Source: Planctomycetota bacterium
GTDB taxonomy: Bacteria; Planctomycetota; GCA-002687715; DRQF01
Reading direction: 5' to 3'
DNA length: 64,000 bases
NCBI GenBank assembly: GCA_036479435.1
Contig: JAZGFI010000277.1
Span: 11,247 to 75,246, forward strand
The stretch's first letter is position 1. Each line of letters begins with the position of its first letter. The notes beneath the pieces are model-generated. The model was not told the DNA's origin, did not search any database, and saw only the letters and a program-made list of their open reading frames with translations. Positions 1-22,469 of the stretch are shown in pieces. Made by a program: the position numbers and the translations under genes.

Positions 1-1758
1 CTCGACGCGAGTCTCAGATTCTTCGCGCTCTGACGCCTTCACCAAATCCAAGATCGTCGGCAGAAAGTCGATGTTGCGCGTGATGCCTTGCACGGAGCGA
101 CCGCCAAGTTGACCGGCCGGCAATCGAACGATAAAGGGGATTCGGGTCGACTGATCGCCGCCGAAGAAGTTAGTGCCATGGCCCAAGGTCGTGCCCGGTT
201 CGTAGAGATCTTCGCCGTGATCTGACATCACGACGACAATAGTGTTTTGGTCCAAGCCAGTGCGTTTGAGATGTCTTAGGACTCGGCCCACTTGGTCGTC
301 AAACTGACTGACCCCACCATCGTAAAGCGCAATGATGTGGTCTTTCTCTTTCTGGGGAACGATCTGGTCGAAGCCGTGCTGGATGAAGTCGTCGACGTCG
401 AAGGCGACCTGAAAACGGTTCGGGCCGCGATAGTCGGGTGACACGAACTTCTGATTCCAAGGATGCGAGACTTTGAAAGGCAAATGGGTTGATGCCAAAA
501 ACAAGACGCCAAAAAAGGGCTTGCCCTTTGAGGACGACTCATCGAGCCGATCCAAAAACTTTGTCGTCAAGTGGCCCGGATGCAAATAGCCCGTGGCCTG
601 CGCCATCAAGGGGATGATGTATTCGCCAAACTGGTTGCTGAAAAAATGGGGCACCAAGGGGTGCGTTCTAAACGCCACTTCGGCCAAGAACACATCGAGG
701 TTTTGGACGTCGGAAGTCTCGGTGTGGTCGAAACCAAAATCAGCGAGCTTGAAGCAGTTGGCCGCCCAGTCCCCCACCACGGTCGAGCTGTAGCCCCGTT
801 CGCGAAGAAGGCGCGGGAGCGTGGATTTGCTGTTCTCAACTTGTGCCACCTGTTCCTTCGAAGCGAACATGTAGCGCAAGTGGTGATTGGCGGGATGAAG
901 CCCGGTCATGAACGAAGTCCATGACTCCAAGGTGCTGGCCGTGCCGACATGCATTTGATGAAAGTCGATAGCCTCACGCGCCATCGCATCGATGTTCGGT
1001 GAGGTGTCACGCGCGTAGCCGTGACAACCGAGGTGGTCGTAGCGCAGCGAGTCGCATCCCAAGACGATGATGTTCGGGCGTGGCACGGGAAGGTGCTGAA
1101 CTTCGACGCGCGACCACATGTAGAGCAGGATTGCGCCGCCGACCACAGAACCCAGGAGCAAGCCGACAAGAGTTCGGGCCCAAAACTTCGCGTTAACCAC
1201 GAAACGCATCAACGCGCCAAGGGCATCGATGATCAGCAGCAAGAACAAACCCGCCGAAATGACGGTGAAGGCCTCTTGGATGTGCCAAGTCTTGAACAAG
1301 TAGACGTTGATCATCGGCGAGACATCCCGCGCTGCGATAACCGCGAGATTGTCGAGCGACCCCGGCCCAAGGTAGGTCATCGGACCAAAACTAAGGATGA
1401 AAATGCCTAGATTCCACAGAAAGGCCGAAGCTATCAAACGCAGAAAGCGAGGTCGCCAAGCAGGGCTCTTGCGAGCTCGGATGCGCTGAAATCGCCGCCG
1501 CGCTAGCGGCCACGACAAACTCGCCGTCGTCAACCAGATCAAAGCGTAGGCCGGCAACAAGACCAGTTGCACCTTGATGACCGTACTCATGTGGTCTTCG
1601 CGTGCCGACTTAGCGAAGGCGTTGTCGAGGCTCGCCGCGACAAAAGCGAAGAGCCCAAAGCCAAGGGCAAAGATCGCCAGCGAGATAAGAAGATGGCAGC
1701 TGAACCAGCGCCTCAACGACAGCAGGGCTTTCGGATTTGGATCGGCTTGACCCGTCAT
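1..1758 (-). CDS. Membrane-anchored sulfatase-like (alkaline phosphatase superfamily) hydrolase/transferase; 3' end runs off the window
   Basis: Absent from the ORF track because there is no stop in the window. Manual translation from ATG 1758 gives several TM segments, then RPNIIVLGCDSLRYDHLGCHGYARDTSPNID, TASTLESWTSFMTG, THLP, YDGGVSQFDDQVG and NTIVVVMSDHGE. Confidence 0.88.
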   Translation of the reverse strand, partial: MTGQADPNPKALLSLRRWFSCHLLISLAIFALGFGLFAFVAASLDNAFAKSAREDHMSTVIKVQLVLLPAYALIWLTTASLSWPLARRRFQRIRARKSPAWRPRFLRLIASAFLWNLGIFILSFGPMTYLGPGSLDNLAVIAARDVSPMINVYLFKTWHIQEAFTVISAGLFLLLIIDALGALMRFVVNAKFWARTLVGLLLGSVVGGAILLYMWSRVEVQHLPVPRPNIIVLGCDSLRYDHLGCHGYARDTSPNIDAMAREAIDFHQMHVGTASTLESWTSFMTGLHPANHHLRYMFASKEQVAQVENSKSTLPRLLRERGYSSTVVGDWAANCFKLADFGFDHTETSDVQNLDVFLAEVAFRTHPLVPHFFSNQFGEYIIPLMAQATGYLHPGHLTTKFLDRLDESSSKGKPFFGVLFLASTHLPFKVSHPWNQKFVSPDYRGPNRFQVAFDVDDFIQHGFDQIVPQKEKDHIIALYDGGVSQFDDQVGRVLRHLKRTGLDQNTIVVVMSDHGEDLYEPGTTLGHGTNFFGGDQSTRIPFIVRLPAGQLGGRSVQGITRNIDFLPTILDLVKASEREESETRVE

Positions 1759-1868
1759 GCTCGGATTCCTGCTCTCGGTCGAGGGGGCTGAGAAACAGGA
1801 TAGTACGCGCGATGAGACGGGCCGGCAACGCGCACAGATTGGGGCCCCGCCCCAAGGCGACCTAAGCG

Positions 1869-3266
1869 TTACTGAGTCGCCAACAGCTCCCGCCAACGGG
1901 CAAGAGAAGCCGCCTGCTGATCTCCGGCCACGAGCGGGTCATAGCCCATGAGATCGCCTCGCCATTCTTCGAGTTGTTCCGCGAGATCTGAGCGCTCTTC
2001 CAAGGCACCCTTGAGCAAACCCTCCAAGATCCGTTCGGAGGCGGGGCCTTTGGCCTTAGACGCCAGGCCCAGCCCTAGACGAAAGCTGGCTACGGCCGCG
2101 GTGTTTCGCAATCTGGGGGCAGCTTTGAGGTCGCTGACAAAAGCGAGCAGGATCGTGCCGACGGTTCTCTCGCCCGATTTCATCGGCCCCCCGACCTGAC
2201 CGCAGGCGCGAGCCGCGGCGATCACCACGCCTTCGTCCGCATCGCTAAGAGCTGCCGTCAAGGCTGCCCTTGAGTCTTGATCCTTCAAGCGGCCCAGAGC
2301 CTTCGCCGCGCGCGCTCGAACGGAGGCGTCTTGGTCGGATTGCAGCCGCTCGCGAAGAAGGCCGCGGGCCGATGAACTCGTGATACGCTCCAAAGCCTGC
2401 ACACCATAAGCGCGAAGCTGCTGATTGCCGCTGGGCGCATCACCACTGAGGCGATCTTTGAGATGAGCCACCGCCAGGTCACCGAGCTGCCCGAGGCTTC
2501 GCCGTGACTGCTCCATGAACAAAAACTGATGTTGACCCAACACATCGACCAAAAAGGCAACGCGGCGATCGAGTCCTTTGTCTTGGCCCTTCGTTGGCAA
2601 CTTGCCTTTTCCTAACAAATGCTCGGCGGCGTAGTCGCCCCACTTCTTCGCCGCGATCTGTTTGTTGGTCCATCCACCGTCGGTACTGAAGCCAAACTCT
2701 TGCGAGGTCAAACGGCGCAATTGCGCGGCGGAGGCTTCATTCTCAAGAGCTTTCCCCTCAAGTCCCTTCAACAACACCGGGATCCCCTGGTCACCACCTA
2801 AAGTCCACAGCGCGGCGGCAGCGTGAACCCGCACCACGGGATGACGATCATGAATCGCGGACAAAAGATCGGGAATCGCTTCCACAACCTTCAGTCGTTC
2901 GATGGTCATCATGGCCGTCCAACGCAGTTCAGCGCGCTCGTCCGGACCGCCGTAGGGGCTCTCCTCGACATGGTATCCCAGAGCACTTTTATCGGGTACT
3001 GCGATAAAAGCCTGCTGAGACTTGTCCTTCATCACCCGCAACAAGCCTTCGACCTGGGCCGCCGACAGCGGTAATCGAAGGGCCTGCAAGTCCAAGAGAC
3101 GCCGTTCCAAGGGCCGTGATTCGTCGATGAGCGCAAGCTCGACAAGGTCGAGGTCGGGTTCCGATAGAGAATCCTCTTGGGGTCCGCAAGCGAAACCCAA
3201 AATCAAGCTCAGAGCCAAGGATAAGCACAGCCGGCAGCGTCGCGGCCAAGATCTCGCACTAACCAT
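1869..3266 (-). CDS. HEAT/PBS-lyase repeat lipoprotein
   Basis: Lipobox-like LILGFAC. Repeated HEAT units (DRHPVVRVHAAAALWTLG, DQDASVRARAAKALGRL, DADEGVVIAAARACG). Start placed at ATG 3266, which overlaps the upstream stop. Confidence 0.8.
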   Translation of the reverse strand: MVSARSWPRRCRLCLSLALSLILGFACGPQEDSLSEPDLDLVELALIDESRPLERRLLDLQALRLPLSAAQVEGLLRVMKDKSQQAFIAVPDKSALGYHVEESPYGGPDERAELRWTAMMTIERLKVVEAIPDLLSAIHDRHPVVRVHAAAALWTLGGDQGIPVLLKGLEGKALENEASAAQLRRLTSQEFGFSTDGGWTNKQIAAKKWGDYAAEHLLGKGKLPTKGQDKGLDRRVAFLVDVLGQHQFLFMEQSRRSLGQLGDLAVAHLKDRLSGDAPSGNQQLRAYGVQALERITSSSARGLLRERLQSDQDASVRARAAKALGRLKDQDSRAALTAALSDADEGVVIAAARACGQVGGPMKSGERTVGTILLAFVSDLKAAPRLRNTAAVASFRLGLGLASKAKGPASERILEGLLKGALEERSDLAEQLEEWRGDLMGYDPLVAGDQQAASLARWRELLATQ

Positions 3267-4539
3267 CGAGATACACCTTTGTCTCCGACACCAACACGGC
3301 ATCGTCATCAAGCAAATGAGGGTTTAACTTGTAGAGCAATTTGAGTTCCACTCGACCCGGACCTGAGAAAGGCAGTTCGAACCAGATGAATCGAGACTCA
3401 CCGCTGAGCAACTGCGTTGAATCTGGGTAGTAAACTTTGCGCCGTGGCCGATGCTCGGGCGCCAAGCGTAGCTGCGACAAAGTCAGCGGGTGACCATCCC
3501 AGGTCAGGCTGTTGCTAAGCACTTCAGCGGCGCGGCCCTCGAAGGGGTTTTTTTGAAACTCGTGGCGATAGGGGTTCCGAAATCGAGTGAGCCGAAGGCG
3601 CTCGCCACCGGGTTGCTCTTCCGGAAAAAAGCGCACCACGACGTCTCCGGCGCGGTGGCGTTCGTCATCCGGAAAATTGTGGCCGGTGCCCGAGTTTTCA
3701 ACCTGCAAGATTAAGATGCGCGCCGCAGCGCCAGCTTTTTGGTCAGATCCCTTGCCGCGCCAAGTGCGGGTTGAGAATCGCGCTATCGCTGCGCCGACGG
3801 TCTCGCCGGGTTCGAGAAGAGTCGCCCGCAGGATCGCGGCCGTTCTCAAGATAGAAGGATCGTGACCGCCGCCGAAAACGTGGCTGCGGTGCGTGCTGCG
3901 TTCGCTGCCGACGGTAGGGGGGCCCGGCATGACGGGCATGTGGCAGTCGTTACAGTCTTGGTAAGCCTCGCCCTTCACCGCGAAGCGACTCTGCAACCAG
4001 TTCTGGTGTACTTTGTGCTGATCGTGACAGGGCGCACAGAGCGTCATCTCGGCCAGCGGCTTCCAGGTCACCGGCTGGCAGGGAGCCTCACTCGCGGCGG
4101 ACGTAAGCGCGTTCGGAGTGAGGATCGCGTTGCGGTAGCCATGGCAAGTAAAACAGTTGACCCCGTCATCGCGCCTCGATTCGCGCTCGAGAGCACGGGC
4201 TCCGAAGCCCACGTCGAGCATGGGACGCGGTGCGTGGCAGGGGATGCAGTCTTTGTTTTTGAAGTTGTCGGAGAGGCCTTTGCGACGAGGCTCGGGGTTC
4301 AGCCAAGCGAACTCGTGGTGGGAGCTTTTCCACTCGGCGTAGATCGCGGGGTGACAAGCCGCGCATTGGTCGGAGGTTGTCAAGAGCTTCGTATCAAAAC
4401 CACCATCAGGGGGAGGTCCAAAGCCCTTGACAGCTAAAGAGGTCGGTGCTTCCTTGGGTGCCGTAACCAGGTAGTAGCCCACGCCGAGGGCCAAGCCCAA
4501 AAGCACCACACCCATCAAGATTCGCAGCGGAGCGCTCAT
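3259..4539 (-). CDS. Pentaheme c-type cytochrome with N-terminal membrane anchor
   Basis: Five CxxCH motifs (CAACH, CIPCH, CFTCH, CAPCH, CNDCH). c554-like CxxCH-x-IYxEW start, GTGHNFP motif and N-terminal hydrophobic helix. Confidence 0.9.
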   Translation of the reverse strand: MSAPLRILMGVVLLGLALGVGYYLVTAPKEAPTSLAVKGFGPPPDGGFDTKLLTTSDQCAACHPAIYAEWKSSHHEFAWLNPEPRRKGLSDNFKNKDCIPCHAPRPMLDVGFGARALERESRRDDGVNCFTCHGYRNAILTPNALTSAASEAPCQPVTWKPLAEMTLCAPCHDQHKVHQNWLQSRFAVKGEAYQDCNDCHMPVMPGPPTVGSERSTHRSHVFGGGHDPSILRTAAILRATLLEPGETVGAAIARFSTRTWRGKGSDQKAGAAARILILQVENSGTGHNFPDDERHRAGDVVVRFFPEEQPGGERLRLTRFRNPYRHEFQKNPFEGRAAEVLSNSLTWDGHPLTLSQLRLAPEHRPRRKVYYPDSTQLLSGESRFIWFELPFSGPGRVELKLLYKLNPHLLDDDAVLVSETKVYLDG

Positions 4540-5582
4540 GAACCTTCTCCCTCATCTGCCACAGCCCAAGGTAGACCAACAACTCTCAAGGCCAAGGTCG
4601 CGCCCACTTGGCGAGCTTGCCGGTCTTTAGCTCTAAGGACCTGACCGTCGATCTCGACCTCGCTGAGGTAGTAGTCTCCTCGGAAAATCGATCGACGCAC
4701 GGCTGCACTGACTCCACCGTCGAAAGACTCGGCCTGAACTTCCAACATCCCCTCGCGCAAGACGAGCTGGACAGTACGACCGTCTGCAACCTTGTTCTCA
4801 GCTGCAGGTGCAAAACGTCCCAAGGCCGAAACGAGTTTGCCATTCTCGACTTGGGCTGGCATCAAGGCTCCAGCGCCGACAAATTCGGCCACAAAACCCG
4901 AAGCGGGGCGCTCAAAGATCTCTTCGGGCGTTCCAATCTGTTCGATGCGTCCCGCGCGCATCACGCCGATCCGGTCCGCAAGCTCAAAGGCCTCTTCTTG
5001 TTGATGCGTGACGTAGACCACGGTCATGCCGCGCTCGCGCACGAGCTCAAGTAGAAAGTCTCTCAGCTCTCTAGCCACCGTCGGGTCCAGCGACGACATG
5101 GGCTCGTCCATCAAGATCAGATCTGGCGAGGTCGCCAAGGCTCGTGCCAAAGCCAGCCGTTGGCGCTCTCCGCCCGAAAGCTGATCGGGCTTTCGGTTCG
5201 CCAAGTGTCCGATGTGGCAACGCCCGAGAGTCTCTTGGGCTTCCGGGTGGTTCTTTTTGCTGCCACCGAGGGCAAAGGCGAGGTGGGCAATGGCGCTGAG
5301 GTGCGGCCAAAGAGCCAAGTCTTGGAACACAAAGCCGAGTTTACGTTGAACGGCCTCGACGAAAGTCGACTCGCTCGTGACCAGCTCTGCTCCCAGCTTG
5401 ATGCTGCCGGATTGGGGACGCTCAAGACCGGCGATGGATCGCAACAGAGTCGTCTTGCCGCAGCCCGAGGGGCCCAGCAAGACAAAGAACTCTCCGGGCT
5501 CTACCACGAGGTCAACGCCCAAAAGCGCCTTCGTCTTACCGAAGTCTAAAGCGAGCCTTTTGATTTCGACGCGACGACTCAA
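4536..5582 (-). CDS. ABC transporter ATP-binding subunit, FbpC/PotA type with TOBE tail
   Basis: Walker A GPSGCGKT, signature LSGGERQR, Walker B LILMDEP, H-loop VTH. TTG start overlaps the permease stop (TTGA). Confidence 0.92.
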   Translation of the reverse strand: MSRRVEIKRLALDFGKTKALLGVDLVVEPGEFFVLLGPSGCGKTTLLRSIAGLERPQSGSIKLGAELVTSESTFVEAVQRKLGFVFQDLALWPHLSAIAHLAFALGGSKKNHPEAQETLGRCHIGHLANRKPDQLSGGERQRLALARALATSPDLILMDEPMSSLDPTVARELRDFLLELVRERGMTVVYVTHQQEEAFELADRIGVMRAGRIEQIGTPEEIFERPASGFVAEFVGAGALMPAQVENGKLVSALGRFAPAAENKVADGRTVQLVLREGMLEVQAESFDGGVSAAVRRSIFRGDYYLSEVEIDGQVLRAKDRQARQVGATLALRVVGLPWAVADEGEGS

Positions 5583-7192
5583 AGCAGTTCGACCTTTCTG
5601 CCCGAAAAGAGCGCAAACAAACTGAGCGGCAACAGAGCGAGGAGACCGATCAGAACGCACAGGGCGGCCACCTCTTCATCCCGCGAAAAGTGAACCATGT
5701 TAAAGACTCGCGACTGTGCGGTTTGCCATTGGTCCGGGTTCACCATGAGACCCGCCACCAGTTCTCCGAGGGTGAGCACGAATCCTAAGAGCGCTGCCGC
5801 AATCAAGGCGGGACGAAGCATCGGCAACAAGATGCGAAAAAAGATCGCGGTACCGCTACGACCAGAGATCTCTGCGGCTTCGGTTGCTGACGCCGGAATG
5901 CGGGCCAAGGCGGTGCGTATACAACGCACCGCAAAGGGTAAAAACAGAGTGAGGTAGGCCAAGATTGGCAAACCAAGTCCGCGGTAGACAAAAGTGTCAA
6001 TGAACGAGATGGACTCAAATCGGCCCCAAAACAGATTCATCGCCACGCCGACGACGGCAGCGGGAAGGGCGAAAGCAGTCAAGGCTAGCGCTTCGATGGC
6101 GAATCCACGGCGCGGGCCAAGGCGCCGGCACAATAAAGCGATGGGCAGTGCTGCCGCGACCAGAACGAAGGCGGAAATTGTCGAGAGGATGAGTGAGGCC
6201 CGAAGGTCGGTGATGGTGTTTTGAAAGATGAAGCGGTAAGTCGCCAGGCCTCCGGCCTTCGCCACGAGCGAAAAGAAAGGCCAACCTGCGGTCACGGCGA
6301 TCAGGCCCCAAACGTAGATCGCGGCTCCGATTGATTTGGGTCGCAGCGCATCGGCAAGGGGCCGCGCGTGCGCGGTGCCGCGAAAAATCTCGCGCCCGCT
6401 TGACCAGGCAACCCAATAGAGCGCGGCCAAAGTCGTTAGGACTAAGGGAAGTGCTACGACGGCAGCACTGACGTTGTCGACTTGACTGGCGACGAAAAAC
6501 ACCTCGACCATGATCACCGGCGTGTCGAGCAGCTGCGGGATCGCGTAGCAGGTCGCGGCGAAAATGAAGACAAAGAAGCCACCAGCCAAAACGTGACGGC
6601 CGATCTCGGGCCATACGATTTTCCAAAAAGTCCGCCACGGTCCGGCCACCAGGCGAGCTGCTTCTTCGCGTCGCACGTCGGTTTGGGCAAAACCGCTTGA
6701 GATCAAAAGTGCCGCGAGGGGCCAAAAGGAACAAAAGGAGATCCAGGTCGTACCCGGAAAAAAGGTCTCGGTGCCCGCAATCTCCAAAAAGCCCTGACGG
6801 ATCGCAAAGTTCCAGTCATGCTGCTCGAGCCACTGGCTCAGATATCCCTGCCGCCCCAAGATCCGCATCCAGGAAATCGCGTGAATGTGGGGCGGAATCA
6901 ACAAAGGGGCGATGTAAAAGATGCGCGCCGCTGAACGTCCCAAAAAGCGGCGGCGGTGAAAGAAGTAGACCAAGGGCAAGGCGACCGCAACCGACAACAA
7001 GGCCGTGCCCGCGGCGAGTACGATGGTGTTGACGAGCCGGTCCAACAAGACGCCGTTGATACGATCCCAGCGCTTCGCGACATCGCCGCTAAGAGCGGCG
7101 GGAATGAGGCCGAGCAAAGGCGTCAAACTCAACGCGAACACGATGCTCGCTAAGACGCCCACAACTCCAAGCTTTGTTCCCGCCCGCTTCAA
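5579..7192 (-). CDS. ABC transporter permease, FbpB type (two fused TM domains)
   Basis: Many TM helices and two EAA loops (REEAARLVAG, TEAAEISG). Confidence 0.9.
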   Translation of the reverse strand: MKRAGTKLGVVGVLASIVFALSLTPLLGLIPAALSGDVAKRWDRINGVLLDRLVNTIVLAAGTALLSVAVALPLVYFFHRRRFLGRSAARIFYIAPLLIPPHIHAISWMRILGRQGYLSQWLEQHDWNFAIRQGFLEIAGTETFFPGTTWISFCSFWPLAALLISSGFAQTDVRREEAARLVAGPWRTFWKIVWPEIGRHVLAGGFFVFIFAATCYAIPQLLDTPVIMVEVFFVASQVDNVSAAVVALPLVLTTLAALYWVAWSSGREIFRGTAHARPLADALRPKSIGAAIYVWGLIAVTAGWPFFSLVAKAGGLATYRFIFQNTITDLRASLILSTISAFVLVAAALPIALLCRRLGPRRGFAIEALALTAFALPAAVVGVAMNLFWGRFESISFIDTFVYRGLGLPILAYLTLFLPFAVRCIRTALARIPASATEAAEISGRSGTAIFFRILLPMLRPALIAAALLGFVLTLGELVAGLMVNPDQWQTAQSRVFNMVHFSRDEEVAALCVLIGLLALLPLSLFALFSGRKVELL

Positions 7193-7195
7193 GGT

Positions 7196-8326
7196 TCAGC
7201 TGCGCTTTCTAATCAGGAACACCACGATCATCGCCGCGAAGGCGCCCAAGACTAGGTAGAGAAAAAGGCGGCCTTTGTCGCCCGACTCTTCAGATCCTTG
7301 GCCTTCGAATTCGGCTTGCAACCATTCGCCGTGGAGCGTGATCATCTTGGCAACGTCGTTCCAGTCGACTTCCATCGCCTTGATGTCTTCTAAACGCAAC
7401 ACGCTGTCCGGAGCGCTGACACCGGGATGAAGCGGAATTTGGGCCGAGCGACCCGCCGCGAGTTTCTGCTCGACTTCGACCGAAAGGAGGTAGTCGACGA
7501 GTTTCTTGGCATTCGAGAGATTCTTGGCCCCCGCAATGATCGCGACCGAGTTCGGGATCACCAGGGTTCCCATTTCGCCATCGCCTTGGTCGGGGATGAC
7601 CATGGCGGTGGGTTTGTTGTTGATGAGGGCGACGTTCGCATCGTCGGTGTCGGTCCAAGACCAGTGATACTCGCCCTCCCCCACGGCTTTCATGCTCATC
7701 GCATTGCCACGCGAGAAGTAGATCTGACGTTTGCGGATATCTCTGAAGAACTGTTTGGCTTTCTCTTCGCCCCAGACTGAAAACAAAGCGGCGGCATGGG
7801 TCAAGGTTGTGCCCGTGAGCGGCTTGGCCATGCTCATTTTGCCATCCCAACGCGCGTCGAGAAGATCGTGCAAGCCGCGAGGCAAGGGGTCGTCGCCCAT
7901 AAGGTCTCGGTTATAAATCAAAACGCGAGCGCGAGCGGCGAAACCCGTCCAGTAGCCTTCTGGGTCTTTGAAGCCGGCGGGAATACTCGCAGCGTTGGGG
8001 GCTCGATAAGGCTGCAAGAGGCCCTCGTTCTTCAGCCGGATGGTTTGGGCGAGTTCGTTGTTCCAGTAGACATCGCAGCGCGGGTTAGACCGCTCCGAGA
8101 TGATGCGGTTGACGAGCCCCACGGTCTTGGTGGCTTCGGTGTCGAAGGTCCACGCGACTTTGATGCCGGTTTGCTTCTCGAAGCTAAGGAGTACGGCTTC
8201 TGAAATGGGCCGATCCAAACTGCAGTAGCAGTTGACCGTTTTTTGAGCTGAAGCCGAAGGGTTACACAGGCCCCCGCAAAAAACGAGAATTAGGGCCGCG
8301 ATCCAAGTAGGCAGTGGGGTGTCCAT
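7196..8326 (-). CDS. Extracellular solute-binding protein (FbpA/FutA-like fold) with C-terminal TM anchor
   Basis: GGAGG RBS before ATG 8326 and a signal peptide. FEKQTGIKV, DPEGYWTGFAARARVLIYN and IPNSVAII motifs. C-terminal RLFLYLVLGAFAAMIVVFLIRKRS. Confidence 0.88.
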   Translation of the reverse strand: MDTPLPTWIAALILVFCGGLCNPSASAQKTVNCYCSLDRPISEAVLLSFEKQTGIKVAWTFDTEATKTVGLVNRIISERSNPRCDVYWNNELAQTIRLKNEGLLQPYRAPNAASIPAGFKDPEGYWTGFAARARVLIYNRDLMGDDPLPRGLHDLLDARWDGKMSMAKPLTGTTLTHAAALFSVWGEEKAKQFFRDIRKRQIYFSRGNAMSMKAVGEGEYHWSWTDTDDANVALINNKPTAMVIPDQGDGEMGTLVIPNSVAIIAGAKNLSNAKKLVDYLLSVEVEQKLAAGRSAQIPLHPGVSAPDSVLRLEDIKAMEVDWNDVAKMITLHGEWLQAEFEGQGSEESGDKGRLFLYLVLGAFAAMIVVFLIRKRS

Positions 8327-8444
8327 GCCAATCCTCCAAGCAAAATGAGAGCCAAGGGCGAATGATTCCCAAACCCCGCTCCCAGGACAAGATAGGACGC
8401 TGAGGCTGCGAAGGCTCGTTACCAGAGGGTAACGAAATGACGAA

Positions 8445-9794
8445 TCAGTGCCCGCGGTGGACGATTCTCGGCCAGTAGTCATCGAATTCGAATTTGGGGC
8501 TGTTGGCGAGGTCGTGACATTTGAAGCAGAAACGCGGACCCAAGACACCGCGAGGGGTTTTGGTGAGAGGCTGGGCAGCATGGCCCGCCGCCGGGCCGTG
8601 GCAGGCTTCACATTGCACGTTGACTGGCGACATGGTGCTGGCGTCAAAGCCGCCGCGGCGATCAAAATCAACGACATGGCAACGAACGCACTCGGGGTCT
8701 TTCTGATCACCGCTTTCGATCAAGGACTGAAAAGCGTGAGCGTGACGGCTCGCCGCCCACACTTCGTGAGCCTTAGGGTGGCATGTCGCGCAGGTCTTGC
8801 TGCCAGCGTAAGGGCCCTCTGCCTGATGGATACGCGGCTCGTTTTCTAGAAGGTCTTCGTCGTCGACCATCTGGCGGTAAAAGGACAAAAGCTCGCGAGC
8901 GAAGTCGCCGACGCCGACTTTTTCGTCCAAGGTGTAGCCACGAACCGTGCTGGCCTTGGGCCAGGAAGTCCAGGCGACATCACGGCCTTTTTGCCCGAAC
9001 TCCACCACCGGCACGCCGTCGGTGTCCGACAAGAGCACCGGGATGTCGGATACCGAACGCAAGGCCACCATGGTCTTGGCCGCGGCAGCGCTTAGGCCCG
9101 AGCGACCCAGATAAGAACGAGTCTCGGCGTCAGTGGCCGTCGAGTAAAACAACAGATGGCCAACGTCTCCTGCCGTCTTGAGGGAAGCCAAGAGGTCTTT
9201 GGTGTCCGGCTCAGGCACCGCAGCGATACTGGGCTCGTTGAGTTTGTTGTCGGTCGGCGAGACATATCCGGTGACGTGGAGTTTCACACCGCGCCAAGGA
9301 ATGACGACGAAGGGAGTAAAGAGCGGTTCTTCACCGCGCATCAAATTCAAAGATACGAAAGGAAACTCAGCGAGCTGCACAAGGTCCGTCCAAAACGAAG
9401 ACCCAACTTGAAGATCGCCGTCGCCGGGACAAAAAGCCTTCACGCCGAGAGCCGTCATCGACTGCATGAAGATCTCGAGCTTCATTTCTTGCTGCCGACC
9501 CGCGTCGATGACCAAGTCGCCGAAAGCCAAGACCAGGCTGTCAGCCATGACCGCCTTATCAATCCCCTCAAAGAACCCGGCGCGCCTTTCAATTCCTCCG
9601 AGCACCGGCTTCGCGCAGCCGCAAGGGCGAATCATGCCGTGATCGTTGCCAATCATGAACAGGCCGGCTTCGATCTTTGGCGGCTTGCTGGCGCCTTCGC
9701 CACCAGCAGATCGGTCCTCTTGCCGGCAACTCGGGACCAACAGCCCCCCCGCGACAGCGATCAGCAACGAGGAAATAAGTAGTGAACGCATCAT
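8445..9794 (-). CDS. Tetraheme c-type cytochrome lipoprotein with N-terminal UshA/5'-nucleotidase-like domain
   Basis: Lipobox-like LLVPSC. GNDHGMIRPCGC...GGIERRA and FGDL motifs. Four C-terminal CxxCH (CATCH, CVRCH, CEACH, CFKCH). Confidence 0.88.
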   Translation of the reverse strand: MMRSLLISSLLIAVAGGLLVPSCRQEDRSAGGEGASKPPKIEAGLFMIGNDHGMIRPCGCAKPVLGGIERRAGFFEGIDKAVMADSLVLAFGDLVIDAGRQQEMKLEIFMQSMTALGVKAFCPGDGDLQVGSSFWTDLVQLAEFPFVSLNLMRGEEPLFTPFVVIPWRGVKLHVTGYVSPTDNKLNEPSIAAVPEPDTKDLLASLKTAGDVGHLLFYSTATDAETRSYLGRSGLSAAAAKTMVALRSVSDIPVLLSDTDGVPVVEFGQKGRDVAWTSWPKASTVRGYTLDEKVGVGDFARELLSFYRQMVDDEDLLENEPRIHQAEGPYAGSKTCATCHPKAHEVWAASRHAHAFQSLIESGDQKDPECVRCHVVDFDRRGGFDASTMSPVNVQCEACHGPAAGHAAQPLTKTPRGVLGPRFCFKCHDLANSPKFEFDDYWPRIVHRGH

Positions 9795-10837
9795 CGCTTG
9801 AGGTGAAGACTCCAGGGCACGAGCAACCAGGGCTGATCGGCGCGATCGGTTCTGATTCGCAACACGCCGCTATGGGTGCCAGAGCGTAGCCCCTTGGGAG
9901 CCACAACGGCAAGGACCAGGCGGTTCGCGACGAGGTCGGAGTCAAAATCGACGAACAAAGTCGGACTCTCAGCACACTCTAGGACTCGAAACACGCGGCC
10001 GCTTTGGCTGTTGATCAGCAGTTCGCGCTTGCTGGCCGTCTTACTGTCCAAGACCCCGAAAGACAGCCGTCGCGGGCTCACTCTAAGATCGCCAAGGACT
10101 TCCCCGGCGATTATCAGGATGGAACTTGGCTTCCAAATATCATCGGAGAAGACCGGCACGGTCCAGCGAAAGGGCCCGGGTTGTTTTGGCGCACGGCCCT
10201 TCCAAACCAAGGACTGGGCCAGCCCTTCCCCCGCTTTGCCGTTAACCGAGCGTTCGAACCTAGTCGCCACAGCAGCGACGTGTTTTTCGCCGAGTCTCAA
10301 GCGAACGATTTTGTCACCTCTTCGCCGCACGCGGCAGACGCCCGACAGTTCTTGTCGCGGGTCGACTTCCCCGAGTTGCACGGTCAGGGGATCCAAGCGC
10401 CACGCGGCGAGAACTTCTCCCGCAATGGCTAGGCGCAGAGTTTCAACCTTGCCGAGCGTCGAATCAGATTTCATTGCCGCCAATCGCAGGGTCATGTACT
10501 TTTTGAGCTGACCCTCAAGCCCCTTGGTGTCGAAGCGAAACTTCAGCGAGGTTGTCTTGCCGGCGGCCAAGATCCGCGGCGTTTGAAGGCTGCGAGCACA
10601 CTGGCAGTCGAACTTAATGTCGATCAATTTGCGGTCGAGTTTCCCTCGATTCTCAAGCTGGAATACGCCATCAAAACTCGCTCCCTGATCGCAGGCTGGA
10701 AAACTAAACTGCGGCGGGTTAGCGACGATCTGCGCGCGCCCGACATTGAGCCCCGCAAAGCTGAGAAGACAAAAGGCTGCGCCAAAAACAAAGGCGCGAA
10801 ACCCCAATCCATCGACAAGAGGTTTCGAAGACTTCAA
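9791..10837 (-). CDS. DUF1573-like Ig-fold secreted protein
   Basis: Signal peptide, then FQLENRG...IKFDCQC...FDT, resembling the DUF1573 CxC motif, and repeated beta-rich modules. TTG start overlaps the upstream stop. Confidence 0.7.
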   Translation of the reverse strand: MKSSKPLVDGLGFRAFVFGAAFCLLSFAGLNVGRAQIVANPPQFSFPACDQGASFDGVFQLENRGKLDRKLIDIKFDCQCARSLQTPRILAAGKTTSLKFRFDTKGLEGQLKKYMTLRLAAMKSDSTLGKVETLRLAIAGEVLAAWRLDPLTVQLGEVDPRQELSGVCRVRRRGDKIVRLRLGEKHVAAVATRFERSVNGKAGEGLAQSLVWKGRAPKQPGPFRWTVPVFSDDIWKPSSILIIAGEVLGDLRVSPRRLSFGVLDSKTASKRELLINSQSGRVFRVLECAESPTLFVDFDSDLVANRLVLAVVAPKGLRSGTHSGVLRIRTDRADQPWLLVPWSLHLKR

Positions 10838-13059
10838 CGACCCTGTGCCTGGGTTCGAAGGATATCGGCCGCGGTCTTGATGATGGTCGCTTCTTGCGGC
10901 GAACGCGCGTTCGTCCGCACTAAACGATTCAAGAACCGAAGACTCTTGTCGAACTGTCCCAATCCACGGCTGAGTTGCGCAGCCTCCCACAGCAAACCCA
11001 CGGTCGGGACTCCGGCCGCTATGCCCGATTCAATGATCTTGAGCGCCCGTCCTTTTTGTCCGGCGGCTATCGCCTCCTTAACGGCGACGCTCAAGGCATC
11101 GGCGTCTCCGGGAGACAGCTCCAGGGCGCGTGCCGCGTGAAGTTTTACCGCATTGTCATCGCCTTGAAGCTGAGCCAAGCGAATCTTTGCTCGCAGGTAC
11201 TTCAATCGAGAGGCCAGGGGAACTCTATCGCCGAGCTTGAGCAAGACGAGTTTCACTTCTTCAAGCGCGGATTGCGCGTCTTCAGCACCCTTTTGGCGCA
11301 CGAACTGGGTTATGCCACCATCGGGCGAGGCCTGCATCGCGACCTCCGAGAAGGTGAGCTCCGCATCTTGCAGCGCAACATTGAGCTGATTGATGGGACG
11401 ACCCTTGGCGTAGCGCCGCACCCGGTCCAGGCTGCGGCGTGCCAAAATGACGCCCGCCAGGCGCCCGTCAACATCGGGTTGCGACTCGGCCCTTACGGCT
11501 TCCCAAGAGACTCGATTCGACAACAAGTTGAAACACTGAGCTCTCGTCGTGAAATCGATCTGTTGGGTCGACGGCACTCGGACGAAGTTCTTCTCCATGG
11601 CGTCAAAGCGTGCGAAATCTTCGTCTGGTTTTGAACTCTTGATGTCGAGCGGACCCGCAAGAGAACCGACGACCATGTTGTTGTGGAGCGCCCAAACGCT
11701 GTTCTCGTCGAATTCCATCGTGTAGGTGGTCAGAGATGCGAGGCTGCGCCAGGCCTTCACAAGTTGCCGCGTGGCTACCAGTCCCACTAAAATTGACAGG
11801 ACCAAAAAGCCCGTGAGAATTTTGCCCCGCCAAACTCGCCGCCCCTCCCCCGAGCCGAGATGACGGGTTGCGCTCATGGCGATGAAGAGACCCAAACCGA
11901 ATAGGGAGCCGTAAGCGAAGCGATAGGCCGCGATAGCCCCGATCGGCAACAACAGATTCGAGGTGGGCAAAAAGGCCAAGACTGCAAACAGCAGAGCCAC
12001 CCCTTCGATGCGACGACGCCACAACTGCCACAGGGTGCCACCGACGAGCAGCAGCCACAGCAAAAGGCCACCGAGCACCCGCGCATCCATCAGCCCCACT
12101 GGGGGGGTATGGTCTTGGTGAGAGATGTTCGGGTTTAGATCGAAAGGCCAAACGAAAGCCTGCGCGTAGATGCTGAAGAAGGCCGCCAAGCTTGAAGTCA
12201 CGCGCTCAAAGGGAGCGAACTCACGAAAGGCACTTTGTTCGGCTACCGCCGCAAAGGCGCCCAAGACCTGAGTCCGAATGACGACCCACGCGATAAGCAC
12301 CACGATGAGAGGCAGCATCGACGCCAAAGCAAAGGCCAGACGCTTAGCAAAGGGTTCACTCGAAACGGACTGGCCTTCGCCGCTTTCAGCATCACCTTGG
12401 CCGGTGCGGCCGAGGATGAGCGCCTGGGCGAAAAGGACCGCCGGAAACATCGCCGCGTTCTCTTTTGAAAGCAAGGCGCCGAACCAACAAACGGCCGCCG
12501 TTACCAAGAAGCTCCAGGCGCGGACCGCTTCTTTTTCACGCAGCCCGAGCGTGAAGGTCCACCAACTGCCAATGATAAAGATTTGGGCCAGCATCTCCGC
12601 CGCACCGACCATGCCCACCACGGACTCCGCCGCCATCCCGTGCCAGGCGGCAAACAAACTCGCGCCCAGGGCCACTGGGAATCGCCAGCGCCAGCTCGCG
12701 AGGAGGGTCATCAAAAACAGAAACCGCAAGATTGCGAGGAGGGTATGCAATCCAACATTAGCGCGGTTGTAGATAGCAGCACCGGCGCTCGTCGAATCTT
12801 CCGAACCGATCCAATCGACGACAATGAAGTAGACCAGGGTCAAGGGGCGGTAAAGCGTTTCGATAGAGTCGGCACTCTGCTGGCCCGATGGGCCCCACCA
12901 ACTGCTGTGAAAAGCATCAGCAATGCGATGCTCACGAACGATTGGATTCTTGTCGACGACAAGATCAGCATCCAAGGCGAAGTCGTTCTTGCCAATACCG
13001 GTATAGACCAAGGGAAGGAACATGGCCATCAAGGCGACGGCGACGAGTCTGCGTGACAT
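10834..13059 (-). CDS. TMTC-like GT-C membrane glycosyltransferase with C-terminal TPRs
   Basis: NDFALD...YRPLT, WHGMAAESV, ALLSKENA, WPFDL and FLPTSNLLLPIG...AYRFAY motifs. About 11 TM helices and a TPR-like tail. Confidence 0.8.
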   Translation of the reverse strand: MSRRLVAVALMAMFLPLVYTGIGKNDFALDADLVVDKNPIVREHRIADAFHSSWWGPSGQQSADSIETLYRPLTLVYFIVVDWIGSEDSTSAGAAIYNRANVGLHTLLAILRFLFLMTLLASWRWRFPVALGASLFAAWHGMAAESVVGMVGAAEMLAQIFIIGSWWTFTLGLREKEAVRAWSFLVTAAVCWFGALLSKENAAMFPAVLFAQALILGRTGQGDAESGEGQSVSSEPFAKRLAFALASMLPLIVVLIAWVVIRTQVLGAFAAVAEQSAFREFAPFERVTSSLAAFFSIYAQAFVWPFDLNPNISHQDHTPPVGLMDARVLGGLLLWLLLVGGTLWQLWRRRIEGVALLFAVLAFLPTSNLLLPIGAIAAYRFAYGSLFGLGLFIAMSATRHLGSGEGRRVWRGKILTGFLVLSILVGLVATRQLVKAWRSLASLTTYTMEFDENSVWALHNNMVVGSLAGPLDIKSSKPDEDFARFDAMEKNFVRVPSTQQIDFTTRAQCFNLLSNRVSWEAVRAESQPDVDGRLAGVILARRSLDRVRRYAKGRPINQLNVALQDAELTFSEVAMQASPDGGITQFVRQKGAEDAQSALEEVKLVLLKLGDRVPLASRLKYLRAKIRLAQLQGDDNAVKLHAARALELSPGDADALSVAVKEAIAAGQKGRALKIIESGIAAGVPTVGLLWEAAQLSRGLGQFDKSLRFLNRLVRTNARSPQEATIIKTAADILRTQAQGR

Positions 13060-13244: not shown

Positions 13245-13745
13245 TCAAATGACGGCAATCGAAGTCGAGGCGATAGAACCGGTAGCGTCGTTCGTAGCCG
13301 TGAGAGTAACCGTCGCGCCAGCAAGGTCGTTCGGAACATCGAATTCAAACTTCCAGGCCTGGTCCTCAGCACTCCAAAACAGCTTGGGAACATTGACCAG
13401 CCATCCGTCGATCTTAACGACGACCGTGGCCCCGGAGGTGTCATCACCCGCTGCGGGCGCAGGAACATTCTCGACGTGCCCCGTCAAGGTGCCACCGGAA
13501 GACGCGCCTCCCGCCAGGGTGATGCCGGGACCTCTTCCAAGCACCCTTCCATCCTCAGCGTCAACAACGCGACGGTGAAGGAGGCTAAAAGCATCGGCTG
13601 CGGCCGTCAACGCCCACCCGGACTCCACGGCCTTGGCACCGCGAGCTTGGGGCGAGTCTACGCTGGCTCCACCTCCGGCCACGAGCAGCACGCTCATGCC
13701 AATGGAAAAGACCGCGCAGGCGACTTTTGCGCGAAGACGGGACAT
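13245..13745 (-). CDS. Secreted hypothetical protein (beta-rich, Ig-like C-terminus)
   Basis: AAGGAG about 12 nt upstream of ATG 13745. Hydrophobic N-terminus and beta-strand-rich C-terminus. Confidence 0.6.
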   Translation of the reverse strand: MSRLRAKVACAVFSIGMSVLLVAGGGASVDSPQARGAKAVESGWALTAAADAFSLLHRRVVDAEDGRVLGRGPGITLAGGASSGGTLTGHVENVPAPAAGDDTSGATVVVKIDGWLVNVPKLFWSAEDQAWKFEFDVPNDLAGATVTLTATNDATGSIASTSIAVI

Positions 13746-13974
13746 GCGGAATTGAGGCTCCTTTGCGGACAACCAAATTGACGTCGCTACTATACCGTTC
13801 GGATCGAAGGGCCGCTAAACAATTGTGATATTTTAAACCCCTATGATGGATTGAGTTAGCACAGGTCGATGGCTGGGCAACCATGGCCAAGGAGGCCGGA
13901 GGGGGCGAAAACAGACGCAAATCGGCCTCGGATAAGAGATTCGATCGATCTCAAGTTGAAGATCCGGGCCCTTT

Positions 13975-15351
13975 TTAGCGAAATTCATCGGGGTCTATTC
14001 CCAAGGATTGGATCTTTGCGTGGAGAGTCGGGCGGCTTATTCCGGCGCGGCGCGCGGCCTCAGACACGTTTCCCTGCACAGATCGAAGCAATCGCAGCAA
14101 GTACTGCGCTTCAAAGGCCGTCACCGCTTCGCGAAACGGTGCCAAGTTCGCAACCTCGCGCGGCTCGGTTAGGCAATCCTCAGGCACGGCATCAACGCCA
14201 AGGGTTTTCTTTGTACCGAGGGCGAGCATGCGCTCTATCACGTTCTGCAACTGGCGAACGTTGCCTGGCCAATCTTGATCTTCGAGTAAGGCGCGCGCTT
14301 CAAGGTCAATGGCATCTTCATCGCGACCGTGAAGAGCTAGACTATGATTGATGAGCTCCCCGATGTCAGCGCGCCTTTTTCTGAGCGGCGGCACCGTGAG
14401 AGAAAAGACGTTGAATCGAAAGAAGAGGTCTTGGCGAAACAAGTTGTCTTCGACCCGCTTTTTTAGGTCGCGGTGAGTGGCCGCGACGATGCGTAAATCC
14501 AGCACCGACGTTTCGCTACTTCCCAGCGCCGAGACCTCGCCACTTTGAAGCAAGCGAAGCAGTGCCGGCTGCACTTCCAAGGGCGCCTCTGCGATCTCGT
14601 CCAAGAACAAAGTACCGCCGTCAGCCCGCCGGCAAACGCCGTCGCGCCGCACGGTCGCGCCGGTGTAGGCACCTTCCTCCACGCCAAAGAGCTCCGCCGC
14701 AACGAGACTTACCGGCACCGCCGCGCAGTGGAAGGCCTGGAACGGACCCTCGTGGCGGGGCGAACGAGCGTGAATGGCGCGCGCCACGAGCTCCTTACCG
14801 GTGCCACTCTCGCCCTTGATCAGCACCACGCCCTTTTTGCCGGCGACGATGTCAATTTCTCGATAGAGCTGCTGCATCGGCGGGCTTGTGCCCACCATCC
14901 CCTCAAAGCGACGGCCCTCGGCAAGTAGACGCTTAAGGAGCTGGTTCTCAGCCGAAAGCCTGCTCGCGCGCAGAGAGGCGCCGATGACCTTGAGGATCTC
15001 CTCGCGATCGAATGGCTTGGTGATGTAGTTGTCCGCACCTGCTTTCAGAGCGGCGATCGCGTCGGGAATCGACCCGTAACCGGTCATGACGATGACCGGC
15101 AATCCTGGCCGCTGCACTTTAGTGCTCTGCAACAGGGCCAAGCCATCCACCTCGGGCATCCGAATATCGGTCAGCAACAGGTCGAATTCTTGGTCCTGAA
15201 TGAGCCGCCTCGCCGCGGCACCATCGGCGGCGATCTCGACATCGAAGCCGCGTTTTTTGAGCAGCCGTTGCAGGTAAAAGCGCATCGCTTCTTCGTCGTC
15301 GACGACGAGCAAGCGCTCTTTGGGTGCAAGAGTTTTTTCGGATTCGCTCAC
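13975..15351 (-). CDS. Sigma-54-dependent response regulator (NtrC family)
   Basis: REC domain (LLVVDDE, LLTDIRMP, KPF), GESGTGKE, GAYTGA, LFLDEI, WPGNVRQL and a C-terminal Fis HTH. Confidence 0.95.
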   Translation of the reverse strand: MSESEKTLAPKERLLVVDDEEAMRFYLQRLLKKRGFDVEIAADGAAARRLIQDQEFDLLLTDIRMPEVDGLALLQSTKVQRPGLPVIVMTGYGSIPDAIAALKAGADNYITKPFDREEILKVIGASLRASRLSAENQLLKRLLAEGRRFEGMVGTSPPMQQLYREIDIVAGKKGVVLIKGESGTGKELVARAIHARSPRHEGPFQAFHCAAVPVSLVAAELFGVEEGAYTGATVRRDGVCRRADGGTLFLDEIAEAPLEVQPALLRLLQSGEVSALGSSETSVLDLRIVAATHRDLKKRVEDNLFRQDLFFRFNVFSLTVPPLRKRRADIGELINHSLALHGRDEDAIDLEARALLEDQDWPGNVRQLQNVIERMLALGTKKTLGVDAVPEDCLTEPREVANLAPFREAVTAFEAQYLLRLLRSVQGNVSEAARRAGISRPTLHAKIQSLGIDPDEFR

Positions 15352-16853
15352 AAAGACTCTCGATCGGGGATGAACACGGAGAACTCGCTGCCCTGACCCG
15401 GGCCCCTTGATGCGGCCTCGATCCTAGCACCCAAACGCGCCACGATGCCATGCGAGACGGCGAGCCCCAGCCCGGAGCCCCCGCCTCCTGCAGAACTCCC
15501 GTCCTTCGTCGTAAAAAAGGGCTCAAAGATGCGATCGAGGTGTTCGGTGTCGATCCCCAGACCCCAGTCTTTCACCAAGACCCGCTGCCCTCCCGGGGCC
15601 GCCTCGACGCTGATTTCGATCTTCTGACCGCTTTGACTGGCTTGAAGCGCGTTCAGATAGAGATTTAAGAGCACTTGCTGCAGGCCTCGCGCATCACTGG
15701 TTATCGGCGGCAGATTCGAGGCCGACATCCTGAGCTCAACGCCCCTAAGGCTCGCGTCGGGCCCGACCAGCCGCAAGGCCGTCTCCGCCACTTCCCGCAG
15801 CGAAATGGGGCTAAGTTCACCGTCGACGCCACGGCTGAAGCTGAGCAGGTTCTCGGTCACCAAGCCCGCCCTCTCAGCGGTTCTGATGATGACATCCAAA
15901 GTTTCCGCAGCATCGTGATCGCTGACATCATCCTTCAGCTCGGTGGCGCAACCGCGGATACCGCCAATGATGTTGTTGAACTCGTGGGCCATGCCCTGGG
16001 CCATCGTCCCCAACGCCACCATCTTCGCGGACTCGACCAGTTTCCCCTGGGTCGTCTCAAGTTCCACCAAGGTTGTCTCGAGCCTAGCATTAGTGGCTTC
16101 CTTGGCCCCGAGAGCTTCGCGCAGCGCGAGGGTCTTCACTTCGACTTTCTCTTCGAGCCCCTGCTGCGCTTGCTCGACGGCATCCGCCATCGAATTAAAA
16201 CTTCGCGCTAAACGAACGATCTCTTCTCCACCTTGCTCTTGGATGCGACCTCCAAGATCACCTTTCCCCATGCTCTCGACAACTTCGGTTGCCTCTCGTA
16301 GGGGCTTCAACACCGTGAAGAAAAAAGCGAACCCAATCAGGCTGCTTACCGCGAGTAGAAACGCGCCTCCCCATACCAGCAAACGCCGCGTGATGCTCCG
16401 ACGCCATTCTGCAACGGCAACTTTTTGTTGCTCGTCGATTTGGGAGAGCTTGCCGCGAATGACTTCACCCTCGTTCTCGCGAAACAGATCGGCGATGATG
16501 CGCGAGTTCTCTCGATTGCGCACCCTCATTTCGTCGAGCCGTTCGCGCAAGAGCGCCTCTAGTTCAGCCTCGCGGCCTTCGAAAAGATCGAAAGGAATAT
16601 CGGCCAGCTCGCGGCCAAATTTGCCGGAAAGGCTCGTCACCGACTGGTCCATCAGATCGGCCTGCGTGTCTGCGATCTCGGAGAAGACGGTTTCGATTTC
16701 GCGGCCAGAACGATCCATGATCTTCGCCGATGTTTCGGCGACTTCGTCACCCGCGCTCCGCGCGACAATGAGCCCGAACGCCAAGATCCCCAGCACCAAA
16801 AGCGCAAAGAGCGCGAGAAAAAACCGCGCCCCTAAAGATCGAAATCGCGTCAT
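15348..16853 (-). CDS. HAMP-domain sensor histidine kinase
   Basis: Two TM helices, HAMP, H-box AHEFNN, N-box NLYLNA, DWGLG, FEPFFTTK and GSGLGL. Confidence 0.95.
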   Translation of the reverse strand: MTRFRSLGARFFLALFALLVLGILAFGLIVARSAGDEVAETSAKIMDRSGREIETVFSEIADTQADLMDQSVTSLSGKFGRELADIPFDLFEGREAELEALLRERLDEMRVRNRENSRIIADLFRENEGEVIRGKLSQIDEQQKVAVAEWRRSITRRLLVWGGAFLLAVSSLIGFAFFFTVLKPLREATEVVESMGKGDLGGRIQEQGGEEIVRLARSFNSMADAVEQAQQGLEEKVEVKTLALREALGAKEATNARLETTLVELETTQGKLVESAKMVALGTMAQGMAHEFNNIIGGIRGCATELKDDVSDHDAAETLDVIIRTAERAGLVTENLLSFSRGVDGELSPISLREVAETALRLVGPDASLRGVELRMSASNLPPITSDARGLQQVLLNLYLNALQASQSGQKIEISVEAAPGGQRVLVKDWGLGIDTEHLDRIFEPFFTTKDGSSAGGGGSGLGLAVSHGIVARLGARIEAASRGPGQGSEFSVFIPDRESL

Positions 16854-17905: not shown

Positions 17906-17913
17906 CCGCCGCC

Positions 17914-20225: not shown

Positions 20226-20305
20226 GGCCCAATGATAGCCAAGGGGAAGACCTTCCCCAGCGTGACCTCCTTGCCGCAATCATGGGCTGCCCCTACGATC
20301 GATAC

Positions 20306-22377: not shown

Positions 22378-22469
22378 CAAAGAACAAAGCCGCCGTTATA
22401 GGGCGGACTTACCCACACCTGTCGCAATGGCTGCGACCAGGATGTGAAACTCAAAGGAGGGATTCTTCC

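Follow-up and report, generated by a model that had tools for sequence, protein, structure and literature searches.

A conserved gene unit of an Fbp-fold ABC importer, a pentahaem cytochrome and a HEAT-repeat protein in Planctomycetota, and its possible role in redox-coupled metal uptake

Why should the genes of an ATP-binding cassette (ABC) importer of the Fbp kind lie among those of multihaem c-type cytochromes? The question is raised by a 64,000-nucleotide stretch of DNA (hereafter, the window) from a Planctomycetota bacterium (GenBank assembly GCA_036479435.1, contig JAZGFI010000277.1, positions 11,247 to 75,246; contig C277 of our source genome G000, which measures 5.5 Mb and is 92% complete). 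The original prediction, made from this sequence alone, described nine co-oriented genes with start/stop overlaps and gaps of about 118 and 110 bp, in which the importer is sandwiched between a tetrahaem and a pentahaem cytochrome that could alter the redox state of a metal to be taken up. The layout is borne out by the coordinates of the open reading frames (ORFs) and the lengths of their junctions, as nine ORFs, all on the minus strand, lie at the predicted positions, and the haem counts agree with the CxxCH motifs, four in the tetrahaem protein and five in the pentahaem protein. Five of these genes, encoding the substrate-binding protein (SBP), permease, ATPase, pentahaem cytochrome and HEAT-repeat protein (8326-1869), are a conserved, tight unit, whereas the tetrahaem gene belongs to a separate block. 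The members of the unit, and a palindrome that precedes them, are as follows.

8418..8433, no strand: palindrome GTTAC-N6-GTAAC, which may serve the importer unit as an operator or promoter element, given its conservation upstream of the SBP gene
7196..8326, minus: SBP of the FbpA/AfuA fold with a C-terminal membrane anchor and a carboxylate-rich site (model and conserved residues)
5579..7192, minus: ABC permease of FbpB size, 537 aa (BPD_transp_1)
4536..5582, minus: ATPase of the FbpC/PotA class of ABC proteins, in which the Walker A and B motifs, Q-loop, signature and H-loop are all intact
3259..4539, minus: c-type cytochrome with five haems and the c552/ExtKL-MccSep (PHC) fold, bearing a membrane helix at its N terminus and an Ig-like tail
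1869..3266, minus: HEAT-repeat protein with a lipoprotein-type signal (signal Cys kept in 23/24)

The SBP and permease genes are 3 bp apart, and the following junctions are overlaps of 4 bp (permease/ATPase), 4 bp (ATPase/pentahaem) and 8 bp (pentahaem/HEAT), after which a gap of 110 bp ends the unit. A longer SBP ORF from 8710 was dropped since it overlaps the upstream gene, and the ATG at 8326 was taken as the start. Among 22 relatives of the same family and order, orthologues of the pentahaem protein occur in 21 and of the SBP in 20, those without one or the other being genomes that are 76% and 83% complete. The HEAT gene directly follows the pentahaem gene in 21/21 relatives, the ATPase gene directly precedes it in 20/21 (the remaining one is a contig edge), and the whole run from SBP through HEAT lies on a single contig in 17 relatives, the others being interrupted at contig ends. 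Therefore, the arrangement is not due to chance.

Across the phylum, sampled as one even set of 301 Planctomycetota genomes, 129 genomes carry a member of the pentahaem family, 187 one of the SBP family and 114 one of the tetrahaem family; the genomes are related, and hence the linkage counts given here are not independent. Outside the order, the families were cross-tabulated for matches with listed positions (27 cytochrome and 51 SBP matches lie outside these), cytochromes being admitted at values better than about 1e-52. Among the matches listed, the pentahaem gene was less than 7 kb from an SBP gene in 30/70 genomes, whereas the tetrahaem gene was near an SBP gene in 2/56, and the two cytochrome genes were together in 0/32. 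The placement of the pentahaem gene varies, as it may stand after the ATPase, before the SBP, or in divergent or convergent orientation. In 40 genomes the SBP and pentahaem genes were not linked; 39 of these were examined, and the ATPase gene still abuts the pentahaem gene in 35, with the permease also present, at a contig end, in two of those 35, but does not in three, with one contig edge. The order HEAT-ATPase-cytochrome was seen in six further genomes (family f28). The SBP loci of 20 genomes without SBP-pentahaem linkage had no permease in range in 19 cases, and at 22 of the 30 best permease loci both SBP and ATPase were missing from the surrounding 1.5 kb. Thus, the importer genes often lie at three separate places, while the cytochrome stays with its motor gene, the ATPase. 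The scattered parts are likely to be orthologous; in a FastTree tree, the scattered SBPs nest among the cytochrome-linked ones, and an ATPase tree built by a quick method from 93 rows gave no resolution on whether the cytochrome-linked ATPases form one clade. Transporter genes were found at none of seven paralogous pentahaem loci, and neither an SBP nor a permease of the importer's family was found at seven distant Thermoanaerobaculia-type loci and one planctomycete locus.

Loss of linkage between cytochrome and importer genes in related genomes was the outcome that the original prediction had named as telling against it. For the pentahaem gene this is not what was found, because the linkage persists through different gene orders and even where the SBP and permease are scattered; for the block of tetrahaem, DUF1573 and GT-C genes it is what was found, since the tetrahaem gene is so rarely near the SBP or the pentahaem gene outside the order, and the palindrome lies between the two blocks. 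The proposed sandwich is therefore half right, holding on its pentahaem side and giving way to a separate neighbour on the tetrahaem side.

The association of the cytochrome with its neighbours is also seen within single proteins. In a scan of 28 long proteins drawn from the best 150 profile matches, HEAT repeats occur in the same chain as the pentahaem domain in 17/28 long homologues, and two HEAT-pentahaem fusions lie in genomes G012 and G024. An ABC domain is present in four long homologues, of which P0018, a singleton, is a clean ATPase-linker-helix-cytochrome fusion. We consider it probable that the cytochrome and the HEAT protein are functionally coupled to the importer.

The palindrome at 8418-8433 is the only perfect copy of GTTAC-N6-GTAAC in the source genome. 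With up to two mismatches it is found upstream of the SBP gene at 17/18 loci of the order, against 1.4 expected from base shuffles, and at 13/81 other SBP loci, against 6.5 expected, and at 0/22 loci linked to chromate-resistance (chr) genes. It was discovered on 14 of the 18 loci of the order; the four not used for discovery all carry it with at most one mismatch, three of them without an adjacent tetrahaem gene. As the element is kept upstream of the SBP gene, including at loci of the latter kind, it suggests that the importer block has its own control. A regulon search of the genome yielded 11 candidate sites with 12 downstream genes (HEAT proteins, NAD synthetase, DXR, a peptidase), and no iron genes were among these 12. 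Four one-mismatch copies are clustered on contig C103 (89332-99599) of the source genome, before two HEAT-repeat genes, NAD synthetase and DXR. Sigma-70 and terminator scans gave no more than chance level, and there were no Rfam matches across the window.

The pentahaem protein was modelled with a pLDDT of 82.8, and Foldseek matched the model to cytochrome c552 of Thermochromatium tepidum (5ZE8, E 1e-9); in a structure comparison that took a second look at Foldseek's top 1000, 5ZE8 gave Z 19.0 (rmsd 3.5, 279 aligned), and the next match Z 6.7. A profile of 71 pentahaem sequences matches both 5ZE8 (E 9e-29) and MccSep (E 6e-13; about 1e-12 for 9WT8/9WT9), the latter being recovered by this profile and not among the matches listed in the structure search. 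MccSep is described as a reductase of polysulfide and selenite that has five haems, an Ig domain and a selenocysteine (Sec), Sec325, beside a His/Cys haem (PMC13510729), and ExtKL and cable-bacteria pentahaems are grouped as the PHC family in a second paper, with structural homology to c552, whose role is unassigned (PMC11976967). Five CxxCH motifs and a C-terminal Ig-like domain of the same fold are present in the window protein. C154, H75, H220 and H287 are invariant, and H175, D292, R294, R296, R321, Y324 and R325 nearly so. Four conserved extra His and one Cys are a number that could serve five haems, although the model itself contains no haems, and cytochrome c assembly genes are present in the source genome. 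The catalytic U325 of MccSep falls opposite E293, a variable position occupied mostly by E, A or S, and in 51/52 loci the segment from haem motif 4 to haem motif 5 contains no Cys, so that the loop carrying the distal Cys of MccSep (C239) is missing; a His stands three residues past the haem-4 His in 50/52 loci. Since the Sec position is variable and the Cys loop after haem 4 is absent, the known chemistry of MccSep is not kept, and by these residues the protein is a PHC-fold protein but not a MccSep. The invariant C154 is located before haem 4; equating it with C239 was considered and dropped, as the profile alignment puts the two on opposite sides of haem 4. The conserved arginines R119, R294, R296, R321 and R325, several of which lie around the loop that carries Sec in MccSep, may form an arginine-rich anion-binding site. 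Contigs C17, C69, C262, C185 and C195 of the source genome encode three further pentahaem proteins, whose tails bear a GH-x-x-P motif, as well as three large multihaem ORFs with 10, 15 and 17 CxxCH.

In the SBP, the FbpA-like two-lobed fold is present (model pLDDT 91.7), with HitA and FbpA as the top Foldseek matches and a TM score of 0.88 (by target) to HitA 6IVY, although solved homologues are only 17-25% identical. The tandem tyrosines of FbpA and FutA are iron ligands. At this position, the window SBP has D228-D229, which align with the Tyr-Tyr of HitA and of the source genome's own Fbp, and D38, E64, K67, D226, D228 and D229 are invariant in 47/47 SBP sequences. The label 'Fbp-type' thus holds for the fold, the permease and the intact ATPase, but not for Fe(III)-tyrosinate binding. 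Because five invariant carboxylates replace the His and Tyr of FbpA, the ligand would be a metal cation. Automated annotation names the family iron(III) SBP, and it comprises 6602 clusters at E 1e-60 among 8000 scored. TGA codons within SBP matches were considered as Sec codons and set aside as ordinary stops.

The SBP family also occurs on nine plasmid records in four contexts, all of which were inspected. In three of these contexts the SBP gene stands beside chromate genes (chrA, chrB, superoxide dismutase (SOD), ChrB_C, DUF1259), and the fourth is plasmid pAQ7 of Picosynechococcus; on pAQ7 of strain PCC 7002 (L215, 9983-13233), the importer is followed by a beta-propeller gene and an unknown gene of 829 aa. 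Among metagenome SBP loci (the best 80 of 516, many of them short), the pentahaem gene occurs in 12/80, ChrB, ChrF or ChrA in 16/80 and any chr-cluster gene in 22/80, and none of these best 80 carries both pentahaem and chr-cluster genes. The chr-linked SBPs share their pocket residues with the window SBP. In Ochrobactrum, ChrC and ChrF are characterised as Fe- and Mn-SODs (PMC4779226), and from gene order the short ChrB_C genes would correspond to 'ChrF'. This chromate-cluster and SOD context points to a transition-metal ligand for the SBP family. Chromate-resistance clusters repeatedly include an Asp-rich Fbp-fold importer, in many cases with a single ChrB_C gene immediately behind the ATPase gene and with FlgD-Ig and PD40 genes upstream (L216 9959-13774, L217 5342-13307, L218 4586-12207; 16/80 in L219-L298; L195-L197, L202, L067). 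No such ABC importer is mentioned in the published text on chr clusters as far as it was available, and no description of the chromate-cluster importer was found.

A mechanism can be built on what was observed, namely the linkage of the genes, the fusions with HEAT repeats, the protein folds, the residues that are conserved and the palindrome before the unit. The pentahaem cytochrome would reduce an oxidised, anionic metal species in the periplasm, outside the inner membrane, reduction being the probable redox direction; the acid-lined SBP would capture the resulting cation, and ATP-driven import would follow, with the HEAT protein presumably acting as a scaffold. Fe(II) and Mn(II) are the likeliest candidates for the captured cation, and Cr(III) and vanadyl are also possible. 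That uptake is redox-coupled in this way is an inference, and the specific sequence of reduction, cation capture and import is a tentative proposal, to which we give somewhat less than an even chance. A broader proposal is doubtful, though worth stating: the pentahaem and HEAT proteins would be dedicated subunits of an ABC importer, making a cation from a metal oxyanion or an anionic chelate right at the transporter's mouth, and the Asp-rich SBPs would be an unrecognised class of metal-cation receptor, found elsewhere in chromate clusters and perhaps serving Cr(III) or V(IV) besides Fe and Mn. A working precedent is the Fpv system of Pseudomonas, in which an inner-membrane reductase networked with periplasmic binding proteins releases iron reductively from pyoverdine (PMC6954188).

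Several observations weigh against reductive hand-over. The two MccSep features described above, the Sec position and the distal-Cys loop, are not retained. The most faithful neighbour of the cytochrome is a cytoplasmic ATPase, not the SBP to be fed, and even this neighbour is absent in 3/39 examined genomes. The SBP family is found in 187/301 genomes against 129/301 for the cytochrome, and so the transporter works without it in many lineages. The ATPase and pentahaem genes overlap by 4 bases in 68/86 locus records (some genomes being represented twice), which could in itself glue them together, and of the four apparent ATPase-cytochrome fusions, three seem to be products of frameshifts or of chimeric assembly. 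In the FastTree tree, the chr-linked SBPs fall into a clade of their own (24/25, support 96), and they may bind something else. The source genome also has two canonical Tyr-Tyr Fbp operons elsewhere and two ZnuA-family loci, and FeoB is present in 21/22 relatives; therefore, an extra route for Fe(II) or Mn(II) is not obviously needed. FeoB was not found in the source genome, and Nramp is present in 9/22 relatives. The two Fbp operons (contigs C183 and C184, about 960-4790) are nearly identical, reflecting either duplication or strain variation in the assembly.

One rival reading is that importer and cytochrome serve a shared need with no hand-over between them, the importer supplying the metal, and the cytochrome-HEAT pair being a respiratory or sulfur-metabolism protein co-expressed for that metal or under the same conditions. 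PHC members are tied to sulfur metabolism and electron transfer (PMC13510729, PMC11976967), the importer does occur without the cytochrome, and the sister SBPs adjoin genes of SODs, which are metal consumers. Such an account nevertheless leaves unexplained why the cytochrome stays with the ATPase while the SBP and permease scatter, as well as the fusion P0018, and we regard it as unlikely.

Detoxification or sensing is rather less probable again. Here the cytochrome would reduce a toxic oxyanion (chromate, selenite or vanadate), and the SBP and ABC proteins would trap or report the product rather than feed the cell. The company of chr genes in three of four plasmid contexts and in 16 of the best 80 of 516 metagenome loci agrees with such a role, as do the conserved arginines of the cytochrome and the reduction of selenite by MccSep (PMC13510729). 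However, ChrB_C is absent from the source genome and present in only 2/41 genomes searched, the unit, unlike a mobile resistance cassette, sits on the chromosome in a single copy and has been retained in many families, and the chr-linked SBPs stand apart as their own clade.

It might also be asked whether the neighbourhood was simply inherited, the ATPase and cytochrome genes having been locked by their start/stop overlap in an ancestral operon with no common function. The frequency of the 4-base overlap speaks for this, as do the housekeeping genes (ruvA-like, ClpP-like) that flank some loci, the relatedness of the genomes counted and an ATPase tree that is unresolved at depth. Yet the linkage persists without overlap in rearranged orders (cytochrome before SBP, or convergent), the junction between permease and ATPase, which do form a true complex, is broken more often than that between ATPase and cytochrome, and the tetrahaem neighbour has been lost outside the order, so that inheritance alone is a slender prospect. 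Least probable is an organic ligand, with the SBP binding a phospho-compound or amine as AfuA, PhnS and P5PA do and the cytochrome acting on that ligand or on a sulfur species: AfuA is the top SBP sequence match, 2-aminoethylphosphonate SBPs are the top NCBIfam matches (far below cut-off), a G-T-T helix start and N208 are conserved and a sulfatase-fold enzyme follows the unit in the source genome, but five invariant carboxylates disfavour an anionic ligand, the solved homologues are all of low identity, and the sulfatase-fold gene is a variable passenger.

The reductive-uptake proposal concerns the five-part unit, on either side of which stand the remaining genes of the original nine.

10834..13059, minus: multi-pass membrane protein of 741 aa with C-terminal TPRs and 7 hydrophobic segments, a putative GT-C (PMT_2-like) glycosyltransferase; upstream block
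9791..10837 (start 10837 or 10807), minus: secreted DUF1573 Ig-like protein with a CxC motif (PF07610 above cut-off); upstream block
8445..9794, minus: fusion of a UshA-like (CGC) domain and a tetrahaem c554-like domain (NF041198 match, 4 CxxCH); upstream block
1..1758, minus: membrane-anchored sulfatase-fold enzyme of 745 aa, extending past the window; variable passenger

The genes for the GT-C, DUF1573 and UshA-tetrahaem proteins make up a block of their own, found upstream of the importer mainly in this order. There, 16/20 relatives have the tetrahaem gene immediately before the SBP gene; in two it is 3-5 kb off, in one it is on a different contig and in one it was not seen. The GT-C and DUF1573 genes overlap by 4 bp if a TTG start at 10837 is used, or are separated by 26 bp with the start at 10807; the DUF1573 and tetrahaem genes overlap by 4 bp, and 118 bp then separate the block from the SBP gene. 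The GT-C label is faintly suggested, as 3/9 orthologues match PMT_2 below cut-off and the window protein has no GT-C Pfam match. What had been called a tetrahaem cytochrome does have four haem motifs, and is more exactly a fusion of a UshA-like CGC domain and a c554-like domain; it matches NF041198 with E 6e-51 and 173.5 bits, below the 275-bit cut-off, and shows the layout of a CxC motif with a C-terminal multihaem domain, C58-G-C60 being invariant in 19/19 sequences of the fusion. GNHE is the catalytic motif of 5'-nucleotidases such as UshA. It is not kept here, the profile reading p-g-e-g-e opposite the G-N-H-E of YfkN, and the protein is likely not an active nucleotidase. Both CxC cysteines of the DUF1573 protein are kept in 7/7 close sequences. 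The tetrahaem fusion could donate electrons in this order. At the other end, the sulfatase-fold gene, which as predicted follows a 110-bp gap, runs off the window and overlaps a tenth gene, encoding an FG-GAP protein; it holds the same position in only 2/21 relatives.

Further upstream in the window, 13245-13772 encodes a small secreted protein for which neither Pfam nor NCBIfam gave a match; G001, G003 and G005 also have its gene ahead of the GT-C gene. Upstream again, on the same strand, 13975-17944 holds genes for an ABC_sub_bind sensor-like protein, a HAMP histidine kinase and a sigma-54 response regulator, and several of the relatives from the same family and order have this block upstream as well. 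At 20201-23492 on the plus strand, two NfeD genes precede a FloA flotillin gene in an ordinary-looking arrangement. A tRNA-Sec gene is present in the source genome (contig C117, 33644-33741), though the homologues of Sec families at this locus use Cys.

If the proposal is true, a pentahaem family present in 129 of the 301 genomes sampled from Planctomycetota would gain a function, and so would an SBP family whose more than 6,000 clusters are automatically named 'iron(III)' although they are without the iron tyrosines. A multihaem c-type route would be added to reductive metal uptake, which suggests that such planctomycete multihaem genes should not be taken by default as signs of metal respiration. 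Sister importers are present in cultured, tractable strains (Picosynechococcus PCC 7002, Sphingopyxis). A literature search, to which most subscription papers and supplements were out of reach, returned no description of the importer-pentahaem-HEAT unit.

Among known systems, UshA-like and DUF1573 proteins are listed among selenoprotein families with CxU and UGC motifs (PMC13188914); the window copies have the same domain layout, but are Cys forms with CxC instead, the UshA-like one below the NCBIfam cut-off, and neither belongs to the core unit. A sister clade of the SBP is encoded in chromate-resistance clusters (chrBACF and extended forms), whereas the source genome is without ChrB_C. The FbpABC, FutABC and HitABC importers of Fe(III) have the same SBP fold, a permease of FbpB size and an ATPase of the FbpC class, but the window SBP has Asp-Asp for the tandem Tyr and a C-terminal anchor, and cytochrome and HEAT genes are attached. 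MccSep (ExtKL) and T. tepidum c552 share the five haems and the Ig-like tail; compared with MccSep, the window protein is without Sec or Cys at the catalytic loop and without the Cys loop after haem 4, and it differs from both in having another invariant Cys before haem 4, a membrane anchor and linkage to an ABC importer and a HEAT protein. Judged by defining residues, the importer is thus a member of neither the FbpABC nor the MccSep group. In the Fpv system (FpvG/H/J/C/F with FpvDE), FpvG is a PepSY-type protein and FpvDE the ABC core; it is built from other parts, no homology is expected, and no siderophore or TonB receptor gene is in the planctomycete unit, yet the proposed working principle, a reductase networked with SBPs, is the same.

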